A model generated the notes under the pieces. It did not search any database, was not told where the DNA came from, and saw nothing but the letters and a program-made list of their open reading frames with translations. A program made the position numbers and the translations under genes. Below, in pieces: positions 3,196 to 62,612 of a stretch of 64,000 nucleotides of DNA; within the stretch, counting starts at the first letter, position 1, and each line of letters opens with the position of its first letter. Source of the DNA: a virus. The DNA is taken from the IMG/VR virus record IMGVR_UViG_3300027857_000016, positions 15,999 to 79,998 of that record; one strand, 5' to 3'.

Positions 3196-3420
3196 CAGAA
3201 AGATGTGGGAGGGAATGGGTATGTGTTTTTTGTAGCGTGTTTGATAGGGCAACACCAGACATCTGGTGAGGATTGAAACTAGCGCGGTCACTAGAGCTTG
3301 TCAATCGGGCACTCAGCGGGTTGATAAGCATGTGGTGAGTGAGCCACGAGTCGTTGTAGTGCGGTTTGTCGTTTGAATCTGTCATGCGGATTTTGTAGGT
3401 GTCGTTCTCGTAGTTTTTGC

Positions 3421-4559: not shown

Positions 4560-4801
4560 GCATTTGGCACTGTCCCTCCTGTACGGGTGTCTGGACGCAG
4601 CGAGGGGTGATCTGGTCTTGTGTGCAAGATCATCCTGAGCAAGAAGACCTGCCAGACTTCTCTACCTGGAGCGGGGAAACACTGAGGTGGCTGTACGACA
4701 TCCTGCAGAAGTGGCCGCAGGAGTCTCGCCCTCCGAACGTGCAGGAAACGATCAGGCGGATTGAGCAGGTGATGGATGAGCGGAAGAGAGGGATGTCATG
4801 A
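4556..4801 (+). CDS. Hypothetical protein (N-terminal CxxC)
   Basis: ATGA coupling. Confidence 0.6.
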   Translation: MSIWHCPSCTGVWTQRGVIWSCVQDHPEQEDLPDFSTWSGETLRWLYDILQKWPQESRPPNVQETIRRIEQVMDERKRGMS

Positions 4802-15916: not shown

Positions 15917-16352
15917 ACCGAAGAATGGAGGCGATCCACCTCGCCCAATTCTGTTGCATCGTATGAGGCGATTTGTTGTGACGTTCAACAATCGGAAGAA
16001 GAGGGGTGCCTACCCTGCTCAGTCTCATACTGCTGAAGGGTGCGTTGCGACCAATGGAGAGGTTGCCATTTTTACCGATGACTTCCATAGACGTGGATTT
16101 CGCAGTGTAAGTGAGATGTGCAGCGCATTAGAAGAGTATGGGGACTGCAACGTGTCCTGGGTGCCTGAGAATGGGTTGACCGCGCTCTCTCCTGTGACCC
16201 GTCGCCTCCTCTCCCAATTTATCGTAGAAGCCTTTCAGGAGGGTAGGGTACAGGATACCCTCACCCGTTTTGCCGTTCCTCCTGACACGATGAAAGGCGC
16301 GATTGAGGAGTTGAAGCAGTTGATGGTGGAACTACAGGAGAAGCCAGTATGA
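15897..16352 (+). CDS. Hypothetical protein
   Basis: GGAGAGGG RBS; AEGCVATNGEVAI motif also echoed in 24206 gene. Confidence 0.65.
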   Translation: MAIPPNKPKNGGDPPRPILLHRMRRFVVTFNNRKKRGAYPAQSHTAEGCVATNGEVAIFTDDFHRRGFRSVSEMCSALEEYGDCNVSWVPENGLTALSPVTRRLLSQFIVEAFQEGRVQDTLTRFAVPPDTMKGAIEELKQLMVELQEKPV

Positions 16353-18829: not shown

Positions 18830-21800
18830 GTGAGCAGGCGAAAATTCCGAAAAAAGCAGATGACCCTGGATAGAGCAAACCAGATGGCTCTGCCTGGTGG
18901 GGCAATGATGTATGTACCTCCAGGGGGCGCACAGTCAACCTATTCGCAGACGTTTTACGGGTCTCGCACAAAAAATACTCCCACAGGTCAAGTAGCACTT
19001 TTCACACCTGGAAGTCCATTGCAGCCGCAGCAAGGGATAAACCCTAATGGGCAACCCATTGCTTACCGTTATCCTTTCTCCTTCAATACGTTCCCGGTTG
19101 ACCGTACAAGTCAAAACCCTGATATACCCTCTTTTCAGCAGTTACGCAACTTAGCGAAACTCTACAATGGAGTGACTCTTTGCGAACGCTGTTGGCTTGA
19201 TCTCGTCCCTCGGATGAAACTCAAAATTGAACTCAAACCTGAATATGCGGCGCTTGGTGCCGATGAAAAAGACTATCAGGCAGACATTTCTTACTTCCTC
19301 ACCTGGTTTGAGTCTCCTGATAAGATGCATGACCTCCACTCATGGCTTCGCATGTGTCTCCGCGAGCAAACTCAAATTGATGAACTATACATCTACAAAC
19401 GGAAGAAGCGTGGTGGTGGTTTACATGCATTAGAGTTGGTTGCAGGCGATCAGGTCAAACCACTGCTTGATGATTGGGGCAAGATCCCGCAGCCACCTGA
19501 TTTTGCCTACCAGCAATATCCCTGGGGCATACCGGGCGCATGGTTCAGATCCGATGAGATGATCCACTATCAGGAGTCTCCTGCTGCCGATAATCCTTAC
19601 GGTCAGAGTCGTGTTGAGCGCATTATCATGCTGGTCAACCAGGGTCTCCGCAAGCAAAAGAAAGACCTCTCACACTTCACTGAAGGGAACATTCCGAGCG
19701 GCATGATGCTTGTCCCGGATGATGCCACCTGGACACCAGATCAAATTGACGCCTTTGAGCAAGCCTGGAACGCGTTACTCGCAGGAAATGCACAGCAACA
19801 AGTACGGATGAGATTTACCCAACCAGGGATGAAGTATCAACCATTCGAGCAGTATGGGCTTGATCCAACCTTTGACAAGTTCATTCTCAACATTGCCGTG
19901 AGCGCGTACGGCATGAGTATGCAGGATCTGGCGTTTACTGAGGATATCCATAAGAGCAGTGGTGACTCTCAACAAAATGTCACGTATAGGCGTACCATTG
20001 ATCCTCTCGCCGTAGTGTACGCCTCCTTCCTCACCCAGTCCATGAATACTGACTTCCCACCTGAGTATCATGGTGAGATGTTTCAAGCGAGCTTTGGGGG
20101 CTATGATGAGGAGGAAGATGTATCTGAGTTAGCAGGTGCATATAGTACATTAGTGACATCAGGTATTCTTGGCATTACCAATGCTGGCAAACTGCTGAAA
20201 CTCCCTGATGATCCGAATGCTCCCTACATTGGTCGGATCTTGGTTACCAAAGACGGACCCGTGTTCCTCGACGATATGGCGAGCGACAAGATGCGCAATG
20301 CTCAAATGCAGGCACAAATGGCAGGGTACAAACAAGCTAGTAGTCCACAACAACCCGCACAGAATCAACAGAAGACTGGAGAAGAAGAGCAGCAATCGAA
20401 GGAGAACGAGCAGAAGACGCCTGAGAACGAGCCTGCTGACCAGACAGCATCCACTACGCCACAAAATAGCGATGAACATGAGAGTGAGCAAGAGACCGAA
20501 ACGCCCGAAGAGACGGCTGAACATGAGAATGAGATCTCGACCTTGCTCAAGCAGGATACAAGCGAGCCATTTACGCAACTTGAGCGTATGATCGATGTTT
20601 TTGAGCGGCATGAGCCTGGTGGACACGATCATGATCAGAAAACGCATGGAGACTTCGCCCATCCAGGATATGGCGCAAAGCACGACAAGACACCAGCCAA
20701 TCAGGAGGCGATGCAGGCTGAAGCAAAAGCACAACCGGCGATCCAGGCGGCAGACAAGGCAGTACAGGCTGCCCAGGCCAAAGTCAATCAAGCAGAAGTG
20801 GCACTGGCAGGTGCGGCAACCCCTGCCGCAAAGGCACAGGCAAGAGCAGCGCTGGACCAGGCACGTACCGACCTCAGAAAAGCAAAAGATGCACTTCTCA
20901 TGGAAAAAGCAAAGGCGAAGGATGCGGCAACAGCAGAGCGGGCAAAAGCCAAACAGGAAGCGCAGAAACTGGCGGCAGAGAAAAAAGCTGCTGCCGCCAA
21001 GCTGCATGCACAAAAGATGAAAGCACACCTACAGAAACAGGCACAAGCAGCATCCGCCAAAGCCGCGAGAATGCAGGCAACCGCACAACACAAGGCTCAG
21101 ATTGCCGCAGGGAGAGCGGCCAAGTCTGCTGCGAAGTCTGGGAAAGCGCAGGCTCACGCACAACTTCAGGCTGCCAAACAGCAGCAGAAGGCGGCGAAGG
21201 TGTTGGCATCATTGGTCAATACGTTGGGAGCGAAGGCAACACTCTATAATGCGCTAGCAGGACGCAAACTCTCGAAGACCTGGAATGCGCAGGACTCCCA
21301 GGATGCTTCAGCTATTGCCAGTGACTTCCATGCCCTGATCGAGATGGTCAATTCTCATGCCAACGAAGGGAACGCAAAGGCACTTGTTCAACAATTAACG
21401 CAATCGGTAAGTAAGTTACAGGGACAAAAGGGAATCACCTCTGCGAGGTCTGCGGCATTGGATAAGTTGATAGCGCGTATCCAGTCCCAACTAGCGCTCA
21501 ATCGCTCAGTTGGAGACGATAACAGTGACGAGTGGCTCTATGACGATCCAGAAGAGGATGAACGGTTTGATGATGAGGAAATTGACGAAGAAGCAGGAAT
21601 TGAAGAAAGACGCTACACGATTGGCGAACTCCTTCACCTCCTCCAGGAACAGATGCAAGCGAAGGCGACAGATCAAAGAGATGGAACGGATCTTGAGCAA
21701 CCCATCAAAGCGCGATCAGTTGATACAGGAAATGGCAATACGAAGCACGCCACTTCGTCCAATGACGAGACCTCGGATTACAAGCGATGGAGGGGACGAG

Positions 21801-22063
21801 CCATCGAAGATGTGAAGGCAGGAAAGTCACAACGCGGTTTTACTACAACACTGATACCCGACCACATCCATAGGTGGATTAGCGATGAGTTGCCTCTGTG
21901 TACGACTCCCGATGAAGTTCGCTCTGTGTTTAGCAGGGCAAAGAATATGGGTGATGAACCGCTTATCACCAGTCGTGAAGAACTAGCAAGGGGTGTTCAT
22001 TCTGTGTTTAGCAAAGTGGCTCAGCGAGGGCACAATGAACTGATTACCCTGGAGTCTGAATAA
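18830..22063 (+). CDS. Portal protein with long C-terminal extension
   Basis: WFESPD, PYGQSRVERI, FTEGNIPSG clip region; then acidic linker, Ala/Lys-rich coil and terminal DYKRWR domain. Confidence 0.9.
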   Translation: MSRRKFRKKQMTLDRANQMALPGGAMMYVPPGGAQSTYSQTFYGSRTKNTPTGQVALFTPGSPLQPQQGINPNGQPIAYRYPFSFNTFPVDRTSQNPDIPSFQQLRNLAKLYNGVTLCERCWLDLVPRMKLKIELKPEYAALGADEKDYQADISYFLTWFESPDKMHDLHSWLRMCLREQTQIDELYIYKRKKRGGGLHALELVAGDQVKPLLDDWGKIPQPPDFAYQQYPWGIPGAWFRSDEMIHYQESPAADNPYGQSRVERIIMLVNQGLRKQKKDLSHFTEGNIPSGMMLVPDDATWTPDQIDAFEQAWNALLAGNAQQQVRMRFTQPGMKYQPFEQYGLDPTFDKFILNIAVSAYGMSMQDLAFTEDIHKSSGDSQQNVTYRRTIDPLAVVYASFLTQSMNTDFPPEYHGEMFQASFGGYDEEEDVSELAGAYSTLVTSGILGITNAGKLLKLPDDPNAPYIGRILVTKDGPVFLDDMASDKMRNAQMQAQMAGYKQASSPQQPAQNQQKTGEEEQQSKENEQKTPENEPADQTASTTPQNSDEHESEQETETPEETAEHENEISTLLKQDTSEPFTQLERMIDVFERHEPGGHDHDQKTHGDFAHPGYGAKHDKTPANQEAMQAEAKAQPAIQAADKAVQAAQAKVNQAEVALAGAATPAAKAQARAALDQARTDLRKAKDALLMEKAKAKDAATAERAKAKQEAQKLAAEKKAAAAKLHAQKMKAHLQKQAQAASAKAARMQATAQHKAQIAAGRAAKSAAKSGKAQAHAQLQAAKQQQKAAKVLASLVNTLGAKATLYNALAGRKLSKTWNAQDSQDASAIASDFHALIEMVNSHANEGNAKALVQQLTQSVSKLQGQKGITSARSAALDKLIARIQSQLALNRSVGDDNSDEWLYDDPEEDERFDDEEIDEEAGIEERRYTIGELLHLLQEQMQAKATDQRDGTDLEQPIKARSVDTGNGNTKHATSSNDETSDYKRWRGRAIEDVKAGKSQRGFTTTLIPDHIHRWISDELPLCTTPDEVRSVFSRAKNMGDEPLITSREELARGVHSVFSKVAQRGHNELITLESE

Positions 22064-22749
22064 TGCATGCCAGTCTCATTGACCACATTGTCAAAACTTA
22101 TGCCTTCACTGTTGAAGAGAAGCGGCAACTAGCCAACACACTTGCTCAAGGCTACTTGCAGGCGAAAACACAGGCATATCAGAGAGCACAATCACATGCT
22201 GGTCATATTGTGCAGATTCGTCATCCCTGGCAGGTGAGTGAGTCTGATGTAAAGAAGTCGCAACAATGGGCATTGAGTCAGGTACAGAGTATTGCAGAAA
22301 CGTATGAGACACTGCTGCGCCACATGCTAGAACAACTCCCAGAGGAACGTGCTGCAGAAAATATCATTGGCAAAGTACGGGGTGTCATCTCATCCATTAT
22401 TGACTGGATCAATGGCTTTTTGCCGTGGAAGGTGAAGCAAGTCGCTGATAACACATGGAACACTGGCGACAATGATGGAACAGAGCAGTGGATAGACGAT
22501 GTGCAGTCAGATGACATTGAAGGCGATACGAGCACTATTTTCTTGAAAGTAGTGCCAGAAGGAAGCAGTTCTGACTATTGTGCTGACTTCGCTGGGCGCA
22601 CTTTCGCATTGGGGGATGAGATTCCTCATTTCCCTGCTCATGTTGGCTGTATTCATTCTATTGAGGTTATTACGGCTTCCGAGCGCATGGTAAATGTATC
22701 GAGAAATGTACAACCGGAACGGTTTTTAGTAGGCGTGTGGGGCGTATGA
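22063..22749 (+). CDS. Minor head protein, Mu gpF-like
   Basis: Follows portal; C..FAG...PAHVGCIH resembles the gpF P.H..C motif. Confidence 0.65.
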   Translation: MHASLIDHIVKTYAFTVEEKRQLANTLAQGYLQAKTQAYQRAQSHAGHIVQIRHPWQVSESDVKKSQQWALSQVQSIAETYETLLRHMLEQLPEERAAENIIGKVRGVISSIIDWINGFLPWKVKQVADNTWNTGDNDGTEQWIDDVQSDDIEGDTSTIFLKVVPEGSSSDYCADFAGRTFALGDEIPHFPAHVGCIHSIEVITASERMVNVSRNVQPERFLVGVWGV

Positions 22750-22762
22750 AAGGGAATAAACG

Positions 22763-23236
22763 ATGCCAAGTGAGTATCTTGCAGACATTATAGATCACAA
22801 ACAGCGAGTAGCCAACTACTTGCGAATTATAGCGAATGACCTCTTTAAAAGGGCAGCGGAGCATGATAATTCAAAGTTTTCCCCCGAAGAGTTCGAGGCA
22901 TATGAGAAAGCTTTTCCTGGACTCCAAAAATATGCTTATGGTACTCCTGAGTTCAAAGCAGAGTTGCGTAAGATCAAGCCAGCTATAGAACACCACTATG
23001 CGCATAATCGGCACCATCCAGAGCATTACAAAAACGGCATAAATGATATGAACCTATCAGACATGATGGAAATGGGGTGTGATTGGCTTGCAGCATCTAG
23101 TAGAAGTAAAACTGGACTTGAAAAGGGTCTTTTGATGAATAAGGAGAGATTTGGAATAGGTGACCAAATGTTTGGCATTATCCAGAGGACTATTATAGAT
23201 CTCACCAAAGATGGAGAAGGTAGTAGCAGTGAGTAA
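22763..23236 (+). CDS. DUF5662-like HD-fold protein
   Basis: HKQRV, HDNSKFSPEE, HHYAHNRHHPEH, EM.CDWLAAS. Confidence 0.8.
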   Translation: MPSEYLADIIDHKQRVANYLRIIANDLFKRAAEHDNSKFSPEEFEAYEKAFPGLQKYAYGTPEFKAELRKIKPAIEHHYAHNRHHPEHYKNGINDMNLSDMMEMGCDWLAASSRSKTGLEKGLLMNKERFGIGDQMFGIIQRTIIDLTKDGEGSSSE

Positions 23237-23238
23237 AC

Positions 23239-23378
23239 TTGTTCTAGTGACTGATTTAGGGTATAATAAGCACATAAATATTGTTGTGTCAGGCGCTACT
23301 TGCGATAGCCCTGACCGGATACGTCTGATAAGGAGACATATCGTGGATAGTTTACATCATCCTGCCCATTTTCAGCAA
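23239..23378 (-). ncRNA. Endonuclease leader cassette A: convergent promoters plus candidate antisense RNA
   Basis: Sense TTGTTC-17-TATAAT (23239-23267); bulged hairpin 23288-23315; RBS hairpin 23318-23342; antisense TTGCTG-18-TAAACT (23378-23349). Confidence 0.6.
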
Positions 23379-23990
23379 GCCTCTTCCTTTATCGATCCTC
23401 TTCAAGGCGCACAAGCAATCTCACAAGAAGAACGGTGGCTGCCCGTTGTAGGTTACGAAGGTTACTGTGAGATAAGTAATCTTGGCAATGTTCGTAGCCT
23501 TGGGCGTGTAGTGGAAAGACCTGTACGCGGAAATTACATCAAGCGTAACCGTACTCTCAAGCCACATCTAACGCCAAAGGGTTATGCCCGTATCCAGTTA
23601 AGCCGTGATGGAGTGTTGAAAAGTCATATGGTTCATAGACTTGTAGCCCAAGCCTTCATTCCCAATCCCTACGAATTGCCTGAAGTCAATCATAAAAATG
23701 GCATAAAGGTAGACAATCGGGTAGAAAATCTGGAATGGATAACATCTGCAGCAAACCAGGAACATGCCTACGAGATAGGACTAAGAGATCCTGTAACTAA
23801 ATATATTATCCATTGTAAAGAACTAGATATAACCACTAAAGGGACTACTAAGATGGCTGAAGCCCTTAGAGAGCGGGGTTATGTCACTGCTAACCCTGGT
23901 GCCATTTGGAATTGCATTTTTGGAACGAGTGCAACCCATTTAGGCTTGACTTTTACAGGTTCAAGGCTAGTAACCAACAGAGTTTCATGA
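23343..23990 (+). CDS. NUMOD4-HNH homing endonuclease
   Basis: ERWLPVVGYEG..ISNLGNVRS NUMOD4; VHRLVAQAFIPNP..VNHKNGIKVDNRVENLEW HNH; AGGAG RBS before GTG 23343. Confidence 0.92.
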   Translation: MDSLHHPAHFQQASSFIDPLQGAQAISQEERWLPVVGYEGYCEISNLGNVRSLGRVVERPVRGNYIKRNRTLKPHLTPKGYARIQLSRDGVLKSHMVHRLVAQAFIPNPYELPEVNHKNGIKVDNRVENLEWITSAANQEHAYEIGLRDPVTKYIIHCKELDITTKGTTKMAEALRERGYVTANPGAIWNCIFGTSATHLGLTFTGSRLVTNRVS

Positions 23991-24189
23991 AAATGGGGTT
24001 GAGGATATGACGCTCCCGCAGATTATTGAGATGTCTTGTGCTGACTGGCTCGCAGCTTCTGAGCGAAGCCAGATCGATCTCTCAAAAGGTCTTGAGATGA
24101 ACAAAGAGCGGTATCACATTGATGATCAACTGTTTCGGATTATCAAGAATACCATTAAGCAGTACGCACCAGAGAAAGATCTCGACTAA
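23980..24189 (+). pseudogene. Displaced 3' half of DUF5662-like gene
   Basis: EFHENGVEDMTLPQIIEMSCADWLAASERS aligns with EHYKNGINDMNLSDMMEMGCDWLAASSRS of 22763-23236. Confidence 0.8.
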
Positions 24190-24205
24190 ACAGGAGACAG
24201 ATATC

Positions 24206-24532
24206 ATGCGAACGTTTTTGCTCATGCGCTATGATAACCCATCGGCTCCCAGTTTCTTGGATGTAGAAGTGGCTGCTGAAGGAGTTATTTTTACCGAGAA
24301 GGTTGTGCTTTATCACCTCCATGATGAATCTATCACCATTTATGACTCAGTGGATGTCCTCAAAGGGACGTGGGTGGACGATGGCACACATTTCATCCAG
24401 TTCAAGGAGGGTATACCACTTCATGCCGTAGAGCGACATTTTACTCTGGCAGAGCAACAAGAGATTGTTCAGATCGTGGAGAAACACCTGAGACAACAAT
24501 TACGGTTACGTGGAAATACCTTGATGAAATGA
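24206..24532 (+). CDS. Hypothetical protein
   Basis: AGGAG RBS before ATG 24206. Confidence 0.65.
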   Translation: MRTFLLMRYDNPSAPSFLDVEVAAEGVIFTEKVVLYHLHDESITIYDSVDVLKGTWVDDGTHFIQFKEGIPLHAVERHFTLAEQQEIVQIVEKHLRQQLRLRGNTLMK

Positions 24533-24541
24533 GGGAAGTGG

Positions 24542-24790
24542 ATGGTGGAGCCGCCAATGGATCTACGTGTGTCAGTTGAGGGACCAGAATATCAGAAGGT
24601 GGTACATGGTGTGGGTCAACATGGCAACGGTGCCTGGTTTACGTTGACTGTTGCTGTTCCTGGCTGGACTGGTGACATCCCCTATTCCATGCTCACGGAT
24701 GTTCTTTTTAGCAGGCAGAGAGGGTCCCGGCATAGATTGCGCAAACGACCTGAGCGCATGAAGAAGAGGTGGAGGAGGGATATGCGATGA
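24542..24790 (+). CDS. Hypothetical protein
   Basis: GAGGG RBS. Confidence 0.55.
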   Translation: MVEPPMDLRVSVEGPEYQKVVHGVGQHGNGAWFTLTVAVPGWTGDIPYSMLTDVLFSRQRGSRHRLRKRPERMKKRWRRDMR

Positions 24791-24996
24791 AAGAGTTACC
24801 AGTTACGCAAACTGATACCCAACAGATCCCAATTCGATGTGAGACCACAGGCCGATTAGTAGCACGGGCAGATGAGCATGGCGTCTATTTCTTTTGTCGG
24901 CAACACAATACTCAACATCTGATGTCATGGACTGCATTGGAAAGATTAAGAGAAGATATTCGGTTGGGAGAAGTGAAGCCGAAGCAGATGGTGTGA
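24787..24996 (+). CDS. Small protein, possibly Mu Com-like zinc ribbon
   Basis: IRCETTGRLVA...FFCRQH; GGAGG RBS. Confidence 0.5.
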   Translation: MKELPVTQTDTQQIPIRCETTGRLVARADEHGVYFFCRQHNTQHLMSWTALERLREDIRLGEVKPKQMV

Positions 24997-25016
24997 GAGA
25001 ATATCAGCGTCATAAA

Positions 25017-25161
25017 TTGCCTTTTCAGGCGAATTCATGGTATAATGAGATTGGTTGATTGAGTTGTTGCCCTTGCGGTGATGGAAACACCCAAGGGCGT
25101 GATAGCAAGGAGTGACCCTTACTATGGATAGCACTATACCAGAAGGTTTTAAACGATGCAA
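25017..25161 (-). ncRNA. Endonuclease leader cassette B
   Basis: Sense TTGCCT-18-TATAAT; bulged hairpin 25069-25098; RBS hairpin 25102-25125; antisense TTGCAT-17-TATAGT with TG (25161-25133). Confidence 0.65.
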
Positions 25162-26239
25162 CAAATGTGATCTAGTGAAGCCGCTAGATGAGTTTTATAC
25201 GATGAAGAGGCCGAATGGGATAAGGAGTCCAAAGTACATATGTAAAGAGTGTGAGAATGTAGGATCTCAAAGCCGCTTCAAGCAAAAGAAAGTACAAGCA
25301 AACAAAAAGTGCGCCTATCCACCCTGTGATACTATCATTGTGCCTTCCGCAACTTATTGCTCTGCTCACTTCCGGTTAAACCCTGAAGAGGTTGAGCGAC
25401 GTGCTTCTAAATTCCCTCCTAAATCCACCTGCATTTTTCCTGGTTGTGGCAAACTAATCTCTCGCGGAGCATCATATTGTCATTATCACTATAATCGACG
25501 TGAACGATCCCACGTCACTAAATCTAAGATGTCTATGTCTGCTAAGAGACGAGCTAATACTCCAGAAGGCAGGGCAAGAATGTCTCAAGCTGCCAGCCTT
25601 GGAGGGAAAACATGGAAGGGACGGCACCACACACAGGAAACAAGAGATAAGATACGTGGAAAGCGTGCAATGCAAATTCTTTCTCGTGAAAGTCTGGAGA
25701 AGACGTGGAGTAAAACGCGAGGTCGACCTGGCAATCGTGGCGGTATCCCCCATACAGAGGAAGTAAAGGCGAGGATCTCAACAACCCTACAGTCTAAGCG
25801 AGAGCACTTATCGCGGAAGGGTAGAGAGCGTTATGAACGTGAGACAGAGGAGCAACGGGAAAAACGACTTAATCACTGGATACAGGCTGGACAAGAGAGT
25901 ATAGCTAAGATTTTTAGTGGTACTACCATCGAAATGTTTATTGCTCAGCAACTCGACACTCTAGGTATTGAGTATGAAATGCAAAAGAAGATTGGTTACT
26001 ATATTGCTGACTTTTGTATTCCTTCTCATATGATAGTGATAGAAGCAATGGGATGTTTCTGGCATGGGTGTGAGCAGTGTGGATATAATGAACCTTGGCA
26101 TATACTCAAGCGAGAGAAGGAGAAAGTGCGAACCGAAAGGATAGTGAAGAAGGGATATTCTGTTGTAGCCCTTTGGGAACACGAGATTCGTCGAGCAATG
26201 CAAGATAGCGGCTATATCTTGCAATTAGGAATTGAATAG
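25124..26239 (+). CDS. Zn-finger/NUMOD3 plus DUF559/Vsr-like endonuclease
   Basis: CxxC repeats, GRHHTQETRDKI NUMOD3, ADFCIP..VIEAMGCFWHG..LWEHEI nuclease. Confidence 0.85.
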   Translation: MDSTIPEGFKRCNKCDLVKPLDEFYTMKRPNGIRSPKYICKECENVGSQSRFKQKKVQANKKCAYPPCDTIIVPSATYCSAHFRLNPEEVERRASKFPPKSTCIFPGCGKLISRGASYCHYHYNRRERSHVTKSKMSMSAKRRANTPEGRARMSQAASLGGKTWKGRHHTQETRDKIRGKRAMQILSRESLEKTWSKTRGRPGNRGGIPHTEEVKARISTTLQSKREHLSRKGRERYERETEEQREKRLNHWIQAGQESIAKIFSGTTIEMFIAQQLDTLGIEYEMQKKIGYYIADFCIPSHMIVIEAMGCFWHGCEQCGYNEPWHILKREKEKVRTERIVKKGYSVVALWEHEIRRAMQDSGYILQLGIE

Positions 26240-46135: not shown

Positions 46136-47052
46136 TCTGACCATAAAGTAGGAGCATCAGAAGGAGGTAATTTTTTTATGGCATTTCGCTTTTTGTGTGC
46201 TAAGGACATCTTAGCACGGGTTTCAGGCGAGGGTTTTCGCCCTCGACTAGCATTGCCTATGGCACGACAATGCTCTTCAGAAAGTTTCCTCCCTTTGAGC
46301 GAGGTGGACGTTTTTGCCCGTGTCTCATCTGACTTTTTCCGCCCTCTGCTTGCCTTAGCCATATTAGCACGGGCTTCAGCAGAAAAAGGTTTACGCTTTA
46401 CGCCTTTCTTTGCTTCAGATATGTTTTTGCATTCTTCCTGTGATTTCACACGTCCTTTATGGGCTTTTGAGATTTTAGCACGAGCTTCTAGTGAGGGCGT
46501 CACACCTTTCATGCCTGCTCGTATGTTTTCTTTCCATTCGGAAGAAAAAGGTGGGCGTTTTCGACCTTTTGTCGTAGCAGACATCTTAGCTTTGGTTTCA
46601 TCCGATAAATGCTTTCCCTTATTCGCTTCGGAAAGTCTTTGCGCTAAATCAGTTGTCGCGTACGCATTTCTCACGCTCGCAGAAATCTTTGCCCTGATCT
46701 CTGGTGTCAATGATTTCATTCCAATTCCACCCGGAGCTTCATTTGTGAGAGGTGCTCCTTGAGAACGGTAGTATTGAATCCAGTATTGCTCACGCTCTTG
46801 CCATTCATCGACAGAGACTTCATCGATGATATCCAGGAGTGGTTCCAATCCGAGCGATTTGAGATGTTTGACCCAGCGGCCTCTATGTGTCGCTTCTTCG
46901 CTATTCCTAATATGTACTCTCAATCGGTGCTGGGGATCATTCGACTTGCCCACGTATCGAACTTCGCGTGTGACAGGATCGCTAAGGATGTATATCCAGG
47001 TAGTTTGAGGGAGAGGGTTGTCCAATTGATCATGAGGTGGTACAGTGTCCAC
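46123..47052 (-). CDS. GIY-YIG homing endonuclease with NUMOD3 repeats
   Basis: WIYILSDP..RYVGKS..RLRVH..EQYWI..LTN; many GRK.S.ETRAKMS repeats; AGGAG RBS before GTG 47052; overlaps the tail tube stop. Confidence 0.9.
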   Translation of the reverse strand: MDTVPPHDQLDNPLPQTTWIYILSDPVTREVRYVGKSNDPQHRLRVHIRNSEEATHRGRWVKHLKSLGLEPLLDIIDEVSVDEWQEREQYWIQYYRSQGAPLTNEAPGGIGMKSLTPEIRAKISASVRNAYATTDLAQRLSEANKGKHLSDETKAKMSATTKGRKRPPFSSEWKENIRAGMKGVTPSLEARAKISKAHKGRVKSQEECKNISEAKKGVKRKPFSAEARANMAKASRGRKKSDETRAKTSTSLKGRKLSEEHCRAIGNASRGRKPSPETRAKMSLAHKKRNAIKKLPPSDAPTLWSDHAG

Positions 47053-47159
47053 GATATGTCTCCTTATACAGACGTATCCACGCCAGGGGATGGGTCCAAC
47101 CATCGCTCTGGCACAACATTTTACCTCCTCAGTATACCACATACCAAACATTCGTTCAA
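47018..47159 (+). ncRNA. Endonuclease leader cassette C
   Basis: Antisense TTGTCC-17-TACAGT with TG (47018-47046); RBS hairpin 47053-47078; bulged hairpin 47082-47112; sense TTGAAC-17-TATACT (47159-47131). Confidence 0.65.
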
Positions 47160-47265
47160 GCAATTTCACCGTATAATTTCTTGTTTTTCGTTACTCAAAA
47201 ACAGAAAACAAGAAGGGCGATACTAATTAAGATGATGTTGATAGAAGTGATGAGGAGAGAACAAC

Positions 47266-61575: not shown

Positions 61576-62454
61576 TCAGAACAACCTACCCCCTTCCGGC
61601 CATTCATGTGGCAACTTATCATGCTTACTCAGATTACATGTAGGACAAGACAGGACAACATAATCAACATCGTTGCGCGGACCCTCCTCAATGCGACTCA
61701 AAGGGATGGTATGCTCCAAGTGGAAAATGTATTGTCCATTCTTCTTCTCAAACTTAGCATGATCACAAGCACTATAGTAGCATCTGTACTTCTGTGCTTT
61801 CAACTTTTGTTGGATTTGTTGTTCAGTAAGAATACCAGGAATAGCTTTCTTTCGTGCTCCACGATTGTGATTATAGGTTTTGTATTTATCTGGATTGTTT
61901 TTACAATATGCACGCAGCCGTTGCTTATTCTCTTCAGCATGAGAGTTTCGATAGGCTTTCTGCCTAATCGCATCGTCCTCACGAAACATCTCATGATAAG
62001 TCTTACGTTCGATACTAGCACACAGCTTACATCTCGTTTGCACTCCATAACGATGAGTTTTGCTCACATGAAAGTATTCACGCGTAGCAGGCAAAATCCT
62101 TTTACATTTAATACATCTTTTATGTCCCATTTCAATAATTTCAACTTCTCTTCTGCGTGGCGTGGCAACACATTTTTTACACCAAGGAAACAAACCATCG
62201 GAACGGTTTCTGTCAGAATGAAAGAATTCAGATGTGGAAGGGTGCCAATTCTTACACTTGGTACACCGTTTTTCCCCCAATCGATATTCTCGAACTATGC
62301 TGTAACTCTTATTGCCTTTGCATATCTTACAACTGGAATGAAAGCCATCCTTCTTTCTGCTGTCTTTGTGAAAGTAGATGTTTGTTGCGGGGAAAAGTTC
62401 TTTACATTTGGAACATTGCTTGAAAGAGGATGTATCGGGTATAGTGTCGCTCAT
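61576..62454 (-). CDS. HNH endonuclease with three N-terminal Zn-finger repeats
   Basis: 3x KxCxKCK..P.T...FH.....G....CK.C; HLEHTIPLSR..SCPTCNLSKH. Confidence 0.9.
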   Translation of the reverse strand: MSDTIPDTSSFKQCSKCKELFPATNIYFHKDSRKKDGFHSSCKICKGNKSYSIVREYRLGEKRCTKCKNWHPSTSEFFHSDRNRSDGLFPWCKKCVATPRRREVEIIEMGHKRCIKCKRILPATREYFHVSKTHRYGVQTRCKLCASIERKTYHEMFREDDAIRQKAYRNSHAEENKQRLRAYCKNNPDKYKTYNHNRGARKKAIPGILTEQQIQQKLKAQKYRCYYSACDHAKFEKKNGQYIFHLEHTIPLSRIEEGPRNDVDYVVLSCPTCNLSKHDKLPHEWPEGGRLF

Positions 62455-62545
62455 GGAAGATCTCCCAGGTCTTTCATCACGCCAGAGGGTATGTCCAGTA
62501 CCGCTCTGGCAACAATATTTCTCAATACATCAATTATATCACAAA
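62416..62545 (+). ncRNA. Endonuclease leader cassette D
   Basis: Antisense TTGCTT-18-TATAGT (62416-62445); RBS hairpin 62453-62477; bulged hairpin 62481-62510; sense extended -10 TGATATAAT (minus, 62541-62533). Confidence 0.65.
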
Positions 62546-62612
62546 ACAACCTGTAAAGCTAGTTTGTGAATGTTTTGCGGCGTTAAAGATGTTATGTAAG
62601 GAGGAATGACGG

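Follow-up and report, generated by a model that had tools for sequence, protein, structure and literature searches.

Here we analyse a stretch of viral DNA in which a complete gene of the DUF5662 family is followed by an HNH homing endonuclease gene and then by a second, orphan 3' half of the same gene. The stretch, here called the window, comprises 64,000 nucleotides (positions 15,999 to 79,998) of the 80-kb IMG/VR virus record IMGVR_UViG_3300027857_000016, and coordinates are window positions unless another record is named. The locus at 22763-24189 consists of four parts (Table 1): the DUF5662 gene, which can be divided into an N-terminal half (N) and an in-gene 3' half (A), a leader, the HNH gene, and the orphan 3' half (B). 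A preliminary description, made from the sequence alone, had proposed that removal of 23024-23982 rebuilds a complete gene from N and B, and that the HNH element homed without splicing into a conserved HHPE motif and brought a replacement 3' half for the gene that it invaded.

The present gene (N+A) encodes a full-length member of DUF5662 (PF18907), with a score of 121.7 bits against a cut-off of 27. The orphan alone, read in the frame FHENGVEDMTL...DWLAASERS..., reaches 25.4 bits over profile positions 93-155, just below the cut-off, as is expected of a fragment. The two 3' halves share 58% protein identity (E-value 1e-23) and 62% DNA identity, and their homology begins exactly at CAGAG, nothing being alike upstream of it. 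When N (22763-23023) and B (23983-24186) are joined by a script, they form one domain over positions 1-151 of a family hidden Markov model (HMM), with 274.6 bits versus 276.1 bits for the present N+A gene; on an independent viral HMM the scores are 190.3 and 192.3 bits, respectively. The coordinates, the flanking CAGAG and the in-frame rebuilding of the gene by deletion of 23024-23982 are thus confirmed. All family-invariant residues are kept in the orphan, the sole difference being one extra codon (C-A-DW), and the TGA of the HNH gene falls 8 nucleotides inside it. A gene that can be rebuilt in this way, together with the matching anatomy, is far more than chance would produce. The layout is of the type known from fungal mitochondria, that is, a whole gene with an alternative 3' end, a nuclease gene and a displaced 3' fragment, collinear from one breakpoint. 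The Logan assembly of the source run, made from the same sample by a second assembler, holds 21800-25200 in one contig with 0 differences at a depth of 42; this run is the only one found to hold DNA of the window.

Because the P-E codons of HHPE are retained in both copies, CAGAG marks the codons with which the homology of the two copies opens, i.e. the start of the duplication, and is not a target-site duplication. The 4-nucleotide match ACCA upstream of the right-hand CAGAG is probably due to chance. The view of the in-gene half as a diverged or degenerate copy, adopted in the preliminary description, had to be abandoned: the HMM scores of A and B are about equal, and the long branch of A in a quick tree shrank in a careful one.

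Table 1. Features of the DUF5662-HNH locus and related elements (window positions, except for the last row)
Feature	Position	Strand	Description
Complete DUF5662 gene	22763..23236	+	ORF (open reading frame), 157 amino acids; Pfam PF18907, 121.7 bits, profile positions 2-130
N half of the DUF5662 gene	22763-23023	+	ORF, ending ...NRHHPE
Left CAGAG	23019..23023	+	P-E codons of HHPE; start of the A/B homology in copy A
In-gene 3' half A	23024..23236	+	Type KGLL.NKERFGI.DQ.FGII.RT...LT; likely imported replacement half
Leader/spacer	23237..23342	+	106 nucleotides, between the TAA stop of the DUF5662 gene and the GTG of the HNH gene
Leader, weak -35 box	23239-23244	+	TTGTTC
Leader, perfect -10 box	23262-23267	+	TATAAT
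Leader, hairpin	23288-23315	+	
Leader, Shine-Dalgarno sequence	23330-23335	+	AAGGAG, followed by the GTG start
HNH homing endonuclease gene	23343..23990	+	215 amino acids, NUMOD4 + HNH_3; GTG 23343, TGA 23988-23990
Relic of the DUF5662 left junction	23349..23378	+	S-L-H-H-P-A-H-F-Q-Q, within the HNH ORF
Right junction	23973..23990	+	End of HNH gene / start of orphan
Right CAGAG	23978-23982	+	
Orphan DUF5662 3' half B	23983..24189	+	68 codons, open; type ERSQ.D...GLE.NKER.HIDDQLF.IIKNT...YAPEK; likely displaced native half
Second leader copy	47031..47174	-	Before an unrelated nuclease gene; identical 20-nucleotide ribosome-binding block
Third leader copy	62439-62563	-	Weaker
Repeat in locus L087	3196-3230 and ~4665-4700		Different kind of nuclease-flanking repeat

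The HNH ORF contains the NUMOD4 (PF07463, 42 bits) and HNH_3 (PF13392, 36.6 bits) domains, both above the cut-off, and matches PHROG 59 at an E-value of 5e-42. The clade-invariant residues N-H...G.K..N...LE...N..H.Y and the catalytic residues are kept, and we infer that the protein is an active nuclease with a cut site near HHPE. When it was searched against 5.8 billion proteins, 24 of the 29 best matches after the self-match were single ORFs of 272-371 amino acids (about 340 if full length) that combine DUF5662, NUMOD4 and HNH_3 (P0127-P0147, P0150, P0151 and P0155; loci L051/L123, L119-L122 and L124). The 21 closest matches, with 41-63% identity to the window HNH protein, are all such DUF5662-HNH fusions; the GenBank phage collection yielded short HNH matches only.

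In all fused genes the nuclease is inserted in frame directly after HHPE, with the consensus ...HHPE[FH]xxx-EEW[RK]PVVGYEGYYEVSN...HL.LTF..xxIxE[YF]xxxxxxxM[NT]L..EM..DW... The insert comprises 178-194 amino acids and lies around family-HMM positions 80-94, as judged from the 22 fused genes in which both DUF5662 parts can be mapped. At the DNA level, L051/L123, L119-121, L122 and L124 have the three parts in one frame, L051 being one 345-codon ORF, and the AlphaFold2 model of a fused protein is confident (predicted local distance difference test, pLDDT, 88). The nuclease parts of the fused genes, the window HNH protein and P0149 form one clade, supported at 98 by the Shimodaira-Hasegawa-like approximate likelihood ratio test (SH-aLRT). 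P0149 (173 amino acids, on a contig of 969 nucleotides) is the only other member of this DUF5662-associated clade called as a stand-alone protein.

The distribution of invaded genes over a 112-gene host tree calls for 13 gains or losses, at least three of which are forced by strong branches, and pairwise identities of hosts and nucleases are uncorrelated (Spearman -0.04, 190 pairs). The 22 fused genes present one nuclease lineage at one site in diverged hosts, with a patchy spread. A single lineage that recurs at one position across many diverged host alleles bears the signature of homing, and the splicing-free homing of this HNH lineage to the HHPE site of DUF5662, as initially proposed, is strongly supported by the comparison of sequences: the same-site insertions are accompanied by no signal of an intron or an intein.

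The free-standing HNH gene of the window carries marks of the fused state at both ends. After the GTG GAT of the leader, its ORF continues with S-L-H-H-P-A-H-F-Q-Q, which corresponds to the canonical left junction, then with 16 extra residues and EERWLPVVGYEGY (EERW). Thus, the fused relatives read ...HHPE[FH]xxx-EEW..., whereas the window has HHPAHFQQ, 16 amino acids and EERW. On the other side, the 3' end of the HNH gene (...TFTGSRLVTN) meets B (EFHENGVEDMTL) with the spacing of the fused genes, 15 residues from TFTG to M-T-L versus 13-15 in the fused relatives, and one base out of frame; one extra base separates the present state from an in-frame HNH-orphan fusion. The HHP relic on the left, taken together with the canonical spacing on the right, suggests an in-frame insertion as the ancestor of the free-standing gene.

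The leader is a module of about 140 nucleotides (23227-23365 in the comparison) that contains a -10 box, a hairpin and a ribosome-binding block ending in GTG GA. Because its second copy precedes an unrelated nuclease gene, the leader is a shuffled part and not DUF5662 sequence. A scan for consensus promoters did not call a promoter in the leader on the plus strand, and the predicted fold of the leader is no better than those of shuffled sequences (z-score -1.1). The preliminary description had missed three features: the normal state of the lineage, which is in frame and without a spare half, the HHP relic, and the sharing of the leader with other nuclease genes.

The next question is which of the two 3' halves is native to this phage. 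No close nuclease-free relative of the phage was found in the databases searched, where the best DUF5662 relatives are 68-72% identical, and a search with the orphan only gave nothing closer than 71%. A nuclease-free variant was not seen in the contigs of the source run, although contigs cannot reveal rare variants. The comparison with endonuclease-free relatives, suggested in the preliminary description as a check, is coarse at such identities, and it points, with modest support, to the orphan as the native half: the best relatives of N (75-77% identity) carry B-type 3' halves, including the YAPEK tail, which are 59-67% identical to B versus 42-50% to A. No relative has high identity to both N and A, though the search favoured such matches. 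The best full-length match is 71.8% identical to N+B versus 68.8% to N+A, despite the list having been drawn with N+A as the query. A motif search of viral loci gave 7 with an N identity of at least 68%, each of them closer to B than to A.

The phylogeny and the base composition can be considered separately. The sister of A is the 3' half of P0127, a fused gene whose nuclease is the nearest to the window HNH (ultrafast bootstrap 100, SH-aLRT 60); P0078, P0003 and P0108 fall into the group of A as well. N lies outside the supported clade of the N half of P0127. B falls into a supported clade of 33 sequences (98/84) together with P0040, P0091, P0014, P0044 and P0012, on an end branch of unremarkable length (0.18). 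The G+C content at third codon positions (GC3) is 0.41 in N, 0.37 in A, 0.34 in the HNH gene and 0.50 in B; B is similar to the flanking genes, and A to the HNH gene. Taken together, the sequence comparisons support, to a moderate degree, the reading in which N|B is the native gene and A was imported.

One of the genes grouping with A itself looks composite. In P0003 (172 amino acids, on a 93-kb contig), the 5' part is similar to P0078, the middle is nearly identical to the N half of the window, and the 3' half is of type A. This mosaic hints at frequent recombination inside the DUF5662 gene, with past visits of nucleases perhaps as its source.

A parallel case is provided by locus L184, on an unrelated viral contig (IMGVR_UViG_3300010356_002720, positions 1707-2873), which contains an intact DUF5662 gene (1707-2186), a different HNH gene and, from the stop codon of the nuclease gene onwards, an orphan DUF5662 fragment of 47 codons. 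The nuclease belongs to PHROG 3322/374 and has no Pfam match, and none of its relatives adjoins a DUF5662 gene. Compared with its nuclease-free relatives (L142, L178, L135 and L163), L184 is 89-98% identical in the N part and 93-98% identical in the orphan, versus 56-60% in the in-gene 3' end. The DNA of L184 follows L142 up to ...GAAATG (2018), continues with a foreign block (2019-2732) that comprises the alternative 3' end and the HNH gene and is edged by AATG on both sides, and then is again 99.4% identical to L142. Judged by these alignments, the orphan of L184 is demonstrably the native part, and the case shows that phage nucleases do deliver substitute gene ends. L184 has the architecture of the window locus, with a different nuclease and a different breakpoint within DUF5662.

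In a scan of 76 HNH loci for duplications between the upstream and downstream sides, this layout was observed in the window and L184 only. A further candidate for 3'-end replacement, L087, was rejected, since there the repeat on the downstream side of the HNH gene consists of the 11 initial codons of a small ORF (MIRRLLCWLGW). Thus, the earlier suggestion that the element brought a replacement half can be regarded as likely in view of the N-like relatives with B-type halves, the grouping of A with P0127, and L184, the evidence from the phage of the window itself being indirect.

These observations can be combined in the following scenario. A DUF5662 gene would have been invaded at the HHPE-coding site by an HNH lineage specialised on HHPE, most members of which persist as in-frame inserts that are read through within the host protein. 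In the window, the nuclease would have turned free-standing with the modular leader of the phage, travelling in the block 23024-23982 together with the substitute half A. The nuclease would cut nuclease-free DUF5662 alleles near HHPE, and the break would be repaired from the cassette-bearing genome, with N providing the homology arm on the left and the orphan half providing that on the right, where it pairs with the 3' half of the recipient. The block would then be copied between the arms, leaving DUF5662 intact as N+A and turning the 3' half of the recipient into the orphan B. The target would be destroyed because the sequence changes directly after GAG. The N-A junction would accordingly be immune, and in this phage A, not B, would be the imported half. 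We estimate at roughly 60% the probability of the core of this scenario, namely the entry of block 23024-23982 at HHPE into an N|B gene by repair of a break, with A keeping DUF5662 whole and B being the displaced native end.

More tentatively, one HNH lineage may alternate between two splicing-free lifestyles, as an in-frame domain in at least 22 genes and as a free-standing, promoter-equipped gene with a spare half, the orphan serving as a homology arm for re-homing. If so, the independent case of L184 could indicate a general strategy of phages that has been overlooked.

Several points weigh against entry of the whole block into an N|B gene. No single simple event accounts for the formation of the first block, with its spare half upstream of the nuclease, from an in-frame ancestor. 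The direction of replacement rests on segments of about 60 amino acids, because the best relatives are only 68-72% identical, and the sister pair of A and P0127 has an SH-aLRT of only 60. A rank test of N versus C-terminal halves, in which N and A were incongruent, is biased by the choice of relatives according to their N+A score, and N-B itself falls at the 10th percentile of true gene pairs. The GC3 differences are within the sampling error for 70-codon pieces. In the nuclease-free gene P0003, an A-type half is joined to an N-like 3' portion, in a family that is mosaic. The phylogenies of hosts and nucleases are decoupled in general, which makes the case that A travelled with the window HNH weaker. 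Finally, A and B are equal against the family HMMs, A is not detectably specialised, and no signature of immunity was found: in the 54 nucleotides after HHPE, A departs from the consensus no more than B does.

Another scenario is in-frame invasion first, yielding N-HNH-B, followed by recombination with an A-type gene of another phage and the leader, which inserted A, a stop codon and the leader before the nuclease. This step would have made DUF5662 uninterrupted again and the nuclease a gene of its own; A would then not have been brought by the HNH. The left relic HHPAHF and the right junction, one base off, fit such an earlier in-frame state in the same genome, the leader is common to other nuclease genes of the phage, so that local addition is possible, and N and B look like natural partners. 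However, this order requires two events, as well as the coincidence of a rescuing half drawn from a group of only about 5 among 143 sequences, one of which is the host of the closest HNH. The in-frame forms give no sign of being harmful, since 22 of them persist, and L184 presents a single foreign block with sharp borders. We consider this scenario unlikely.

Still less probable is a native N-A gene that was never invaded, with a leader-HNH-B fragment from an invaded gene of another phage landing downstream by illegitimate recombination and B as a mere passenger. Free-standing homing endonucleases commonly adjoin the gene that they cut, as do the seg and mob genes of T4 (PMC2988022), P0003 joins an N-like 3' portion to an A-type half without interruption, and the GC3 of N (0.41) is nearer to that of A (0.37) than to that of B (0.50), these being small samples. 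On the other hand, the relatives closest to N carry B-type halves with the YAPEK tail, and none is high for both N and A. The composition of B resembles that of the flanking genes, the orphan is demonstrably native in L184, and B starts exactly where N ends, which is not expected of a random landing.

If the 3' half had been duplicated in tandem at the locus, with the copies diverging where they stood and an unrelated nuclease entering between them later, this would explain why the copies are collinear and begin at the same codon. Such a history is very improbable: at 62% DNA and 58% protein identity the copies are nevertheless both good family members in different supported clades, an unselected copy would have decayed whereas B is open with all invariant residues, and the nuclease clade is dedicated to the HHPE site. 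Least credible of all is a self-splicing intron, an intein or an assembly artefact: like an intron or intein, the nuclease does occupy a conserved motif of a conserved gene, but Rfam gave no match at the gathering score in the window and none at E-values up to 1 in 22600-24400; in the fused relatives Pfam detects no domains other than DUF5662, NUMOD4 and HNH_3, with no Hint/intein domain and with junctions (HHPE[FH]... and ...I.E[YF]) that are not intein-like; and the second assembler gave the identical sequence at depth 42. Neither the ribozyme core and spliced exons of a group I intron nor the Hint domain and the C/S/T and H-N junctions of an in-frame intein were found, the insert in the window is not read through, and no splicing is needed because copy A ends in its own stop codon.

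The closest known analogs come from fungal mitochondria, where free-standing homing endonucleases are inserted with C-terminal duplications of the target gene, e.g. in atp6 and cob of Endoconidiophora resinifera (PMC6279837). This precedent for a 3' duplication, which the preliminary description had invoked, is real. As in atp6 and cob, the window has a full gene with an alternative 3' end, an endonuclease ORF and a partial C-terminal copy, and function would be kept without splicing. Unlike the fungal cases, with their LAGLIDADG or GIY-YIG nucleases, it involves a tailed-phage host, an HNH/NUMOD4 nuclease, an in-frame relic and a modular leader, and its orphan is intact and could act as a homology arm.

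The free-standing endonucleases SegF, SegG and MobE of T4 provide examples of intronless homing with co-conversion of flanking markers (PMC2988022, PMC2790892). Here, too, a nuclease gene adjoins its target gene, and repair of a double-strand break spreads it along with neighbouring donor sequence, which for the window is a proposal; in T4, however, the donor sequence replaces that of the recipient and no orphan duplicate is left. A review of the T4 systems lists co-conversion and gene splitting as outcomes and does not mention duplication (PMC2988022). Split genes themselves, such as Aeh1 nrdA/mobE and T4 gene 60/mobA (PMC2988022), resemble the window in having an HNH gene in a critical conserved region of a phage gene. 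Their two polypeptides reassemble, whereas the window keeps a full-length copy and its downstream piece is redundant.

The ShiLan domain interrupts an actinophage methylase gene in frame and conceals an HNH (PMC11855218). Being a splicing-free HNH element that is read through in a phage gene, it resembles the 22 fused relatives of the window HNH; in the window itself, where A ends in a stop codon and the HNH gene begins at its own GTG, there is no such read-through. In ShiLan the HNH is in another frame than the host gene, unlike the DUF5662 fusions, where the nuclease is in the host frame.

In tRNA-gene islands, and in phages 21 and e14 at icd, an integrating element restores its target with its own diverged 3' end and the displaced end is left behind. 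These elements use integrases and att sites, unlike the homing nuclease and homologous repair that we propose for the window. Replacement of a 3' half by a homing nuclease element, as known from fungal mitochondria, was not found described for phages in the literature searched.

Homing endonucleases are thought to survive in conserved genes by means of introns, inteins, an intergenic position or gene splitting. The locus and its relatives would document two further solutions of phages within one gene family, a read-through domain and replacement of the 3' half with a spare copy, and the relic would link the two states. The system is compact, with a 215-amino-acid nuclease and a candidate site of about 40 bp at HHPE, and it may be useful for studying the capture of host sequence by nuclease cassettes, the origin of orphan fragments, and mosaic joints inside phage genes. 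A caution for annotation also follows, as short "hypothetical" ORFs on the 3' side of nuclease genes can be displaced gene ends.

No mention of DUF5662 was found in the literature searched. The AlphaFold2 model of the DUF5662 protein (22763-23236; pLDDT 83) is an all-helical bundle whose best structural matches are HD-GYP and HD phosphohydrolases, although these are weak (Z 5-6), and Foldseek found no match in the PDB. The conserved H...HD...HH...D motifs are compatible with the HD match. The protein may thus be weakly characterised as HD-type phosphohydrolase-like, in which case HHPE would be a catalytic-site motif. Motifs of catalytic sites are the kind of sequence favoured by homing nucleases.

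In one subfamily of DUF5662 (L128, L130, L141, L149, L152, L191 and L198; ~3240-3420 in each), a Cys4 zinc ribbon (CxxC...CxxC) of 25-48 amino acids follows HHPEHY. Short in-frame inserts at the same loop as the nucleases were considered as nuclease remnants, and this was rejected, since the inserts are these zinc ribbons. As far as the alignments indicate, the loop after HHPE is an insertion hot spot that tolerates other inserts. Another gene of the window, at 25112-26239 on the plus strand, lies 900 nucleotides downstream of the locus and encodes a protein of 375 amino acids in which Cys-rich motifs recur and whose C-terminal part matches endonucleases. The product is assigned to PHROG 13076 and has weak matches to homing endonucleases and endonuclease VII, so that this is probably another mobile nuclease gene.

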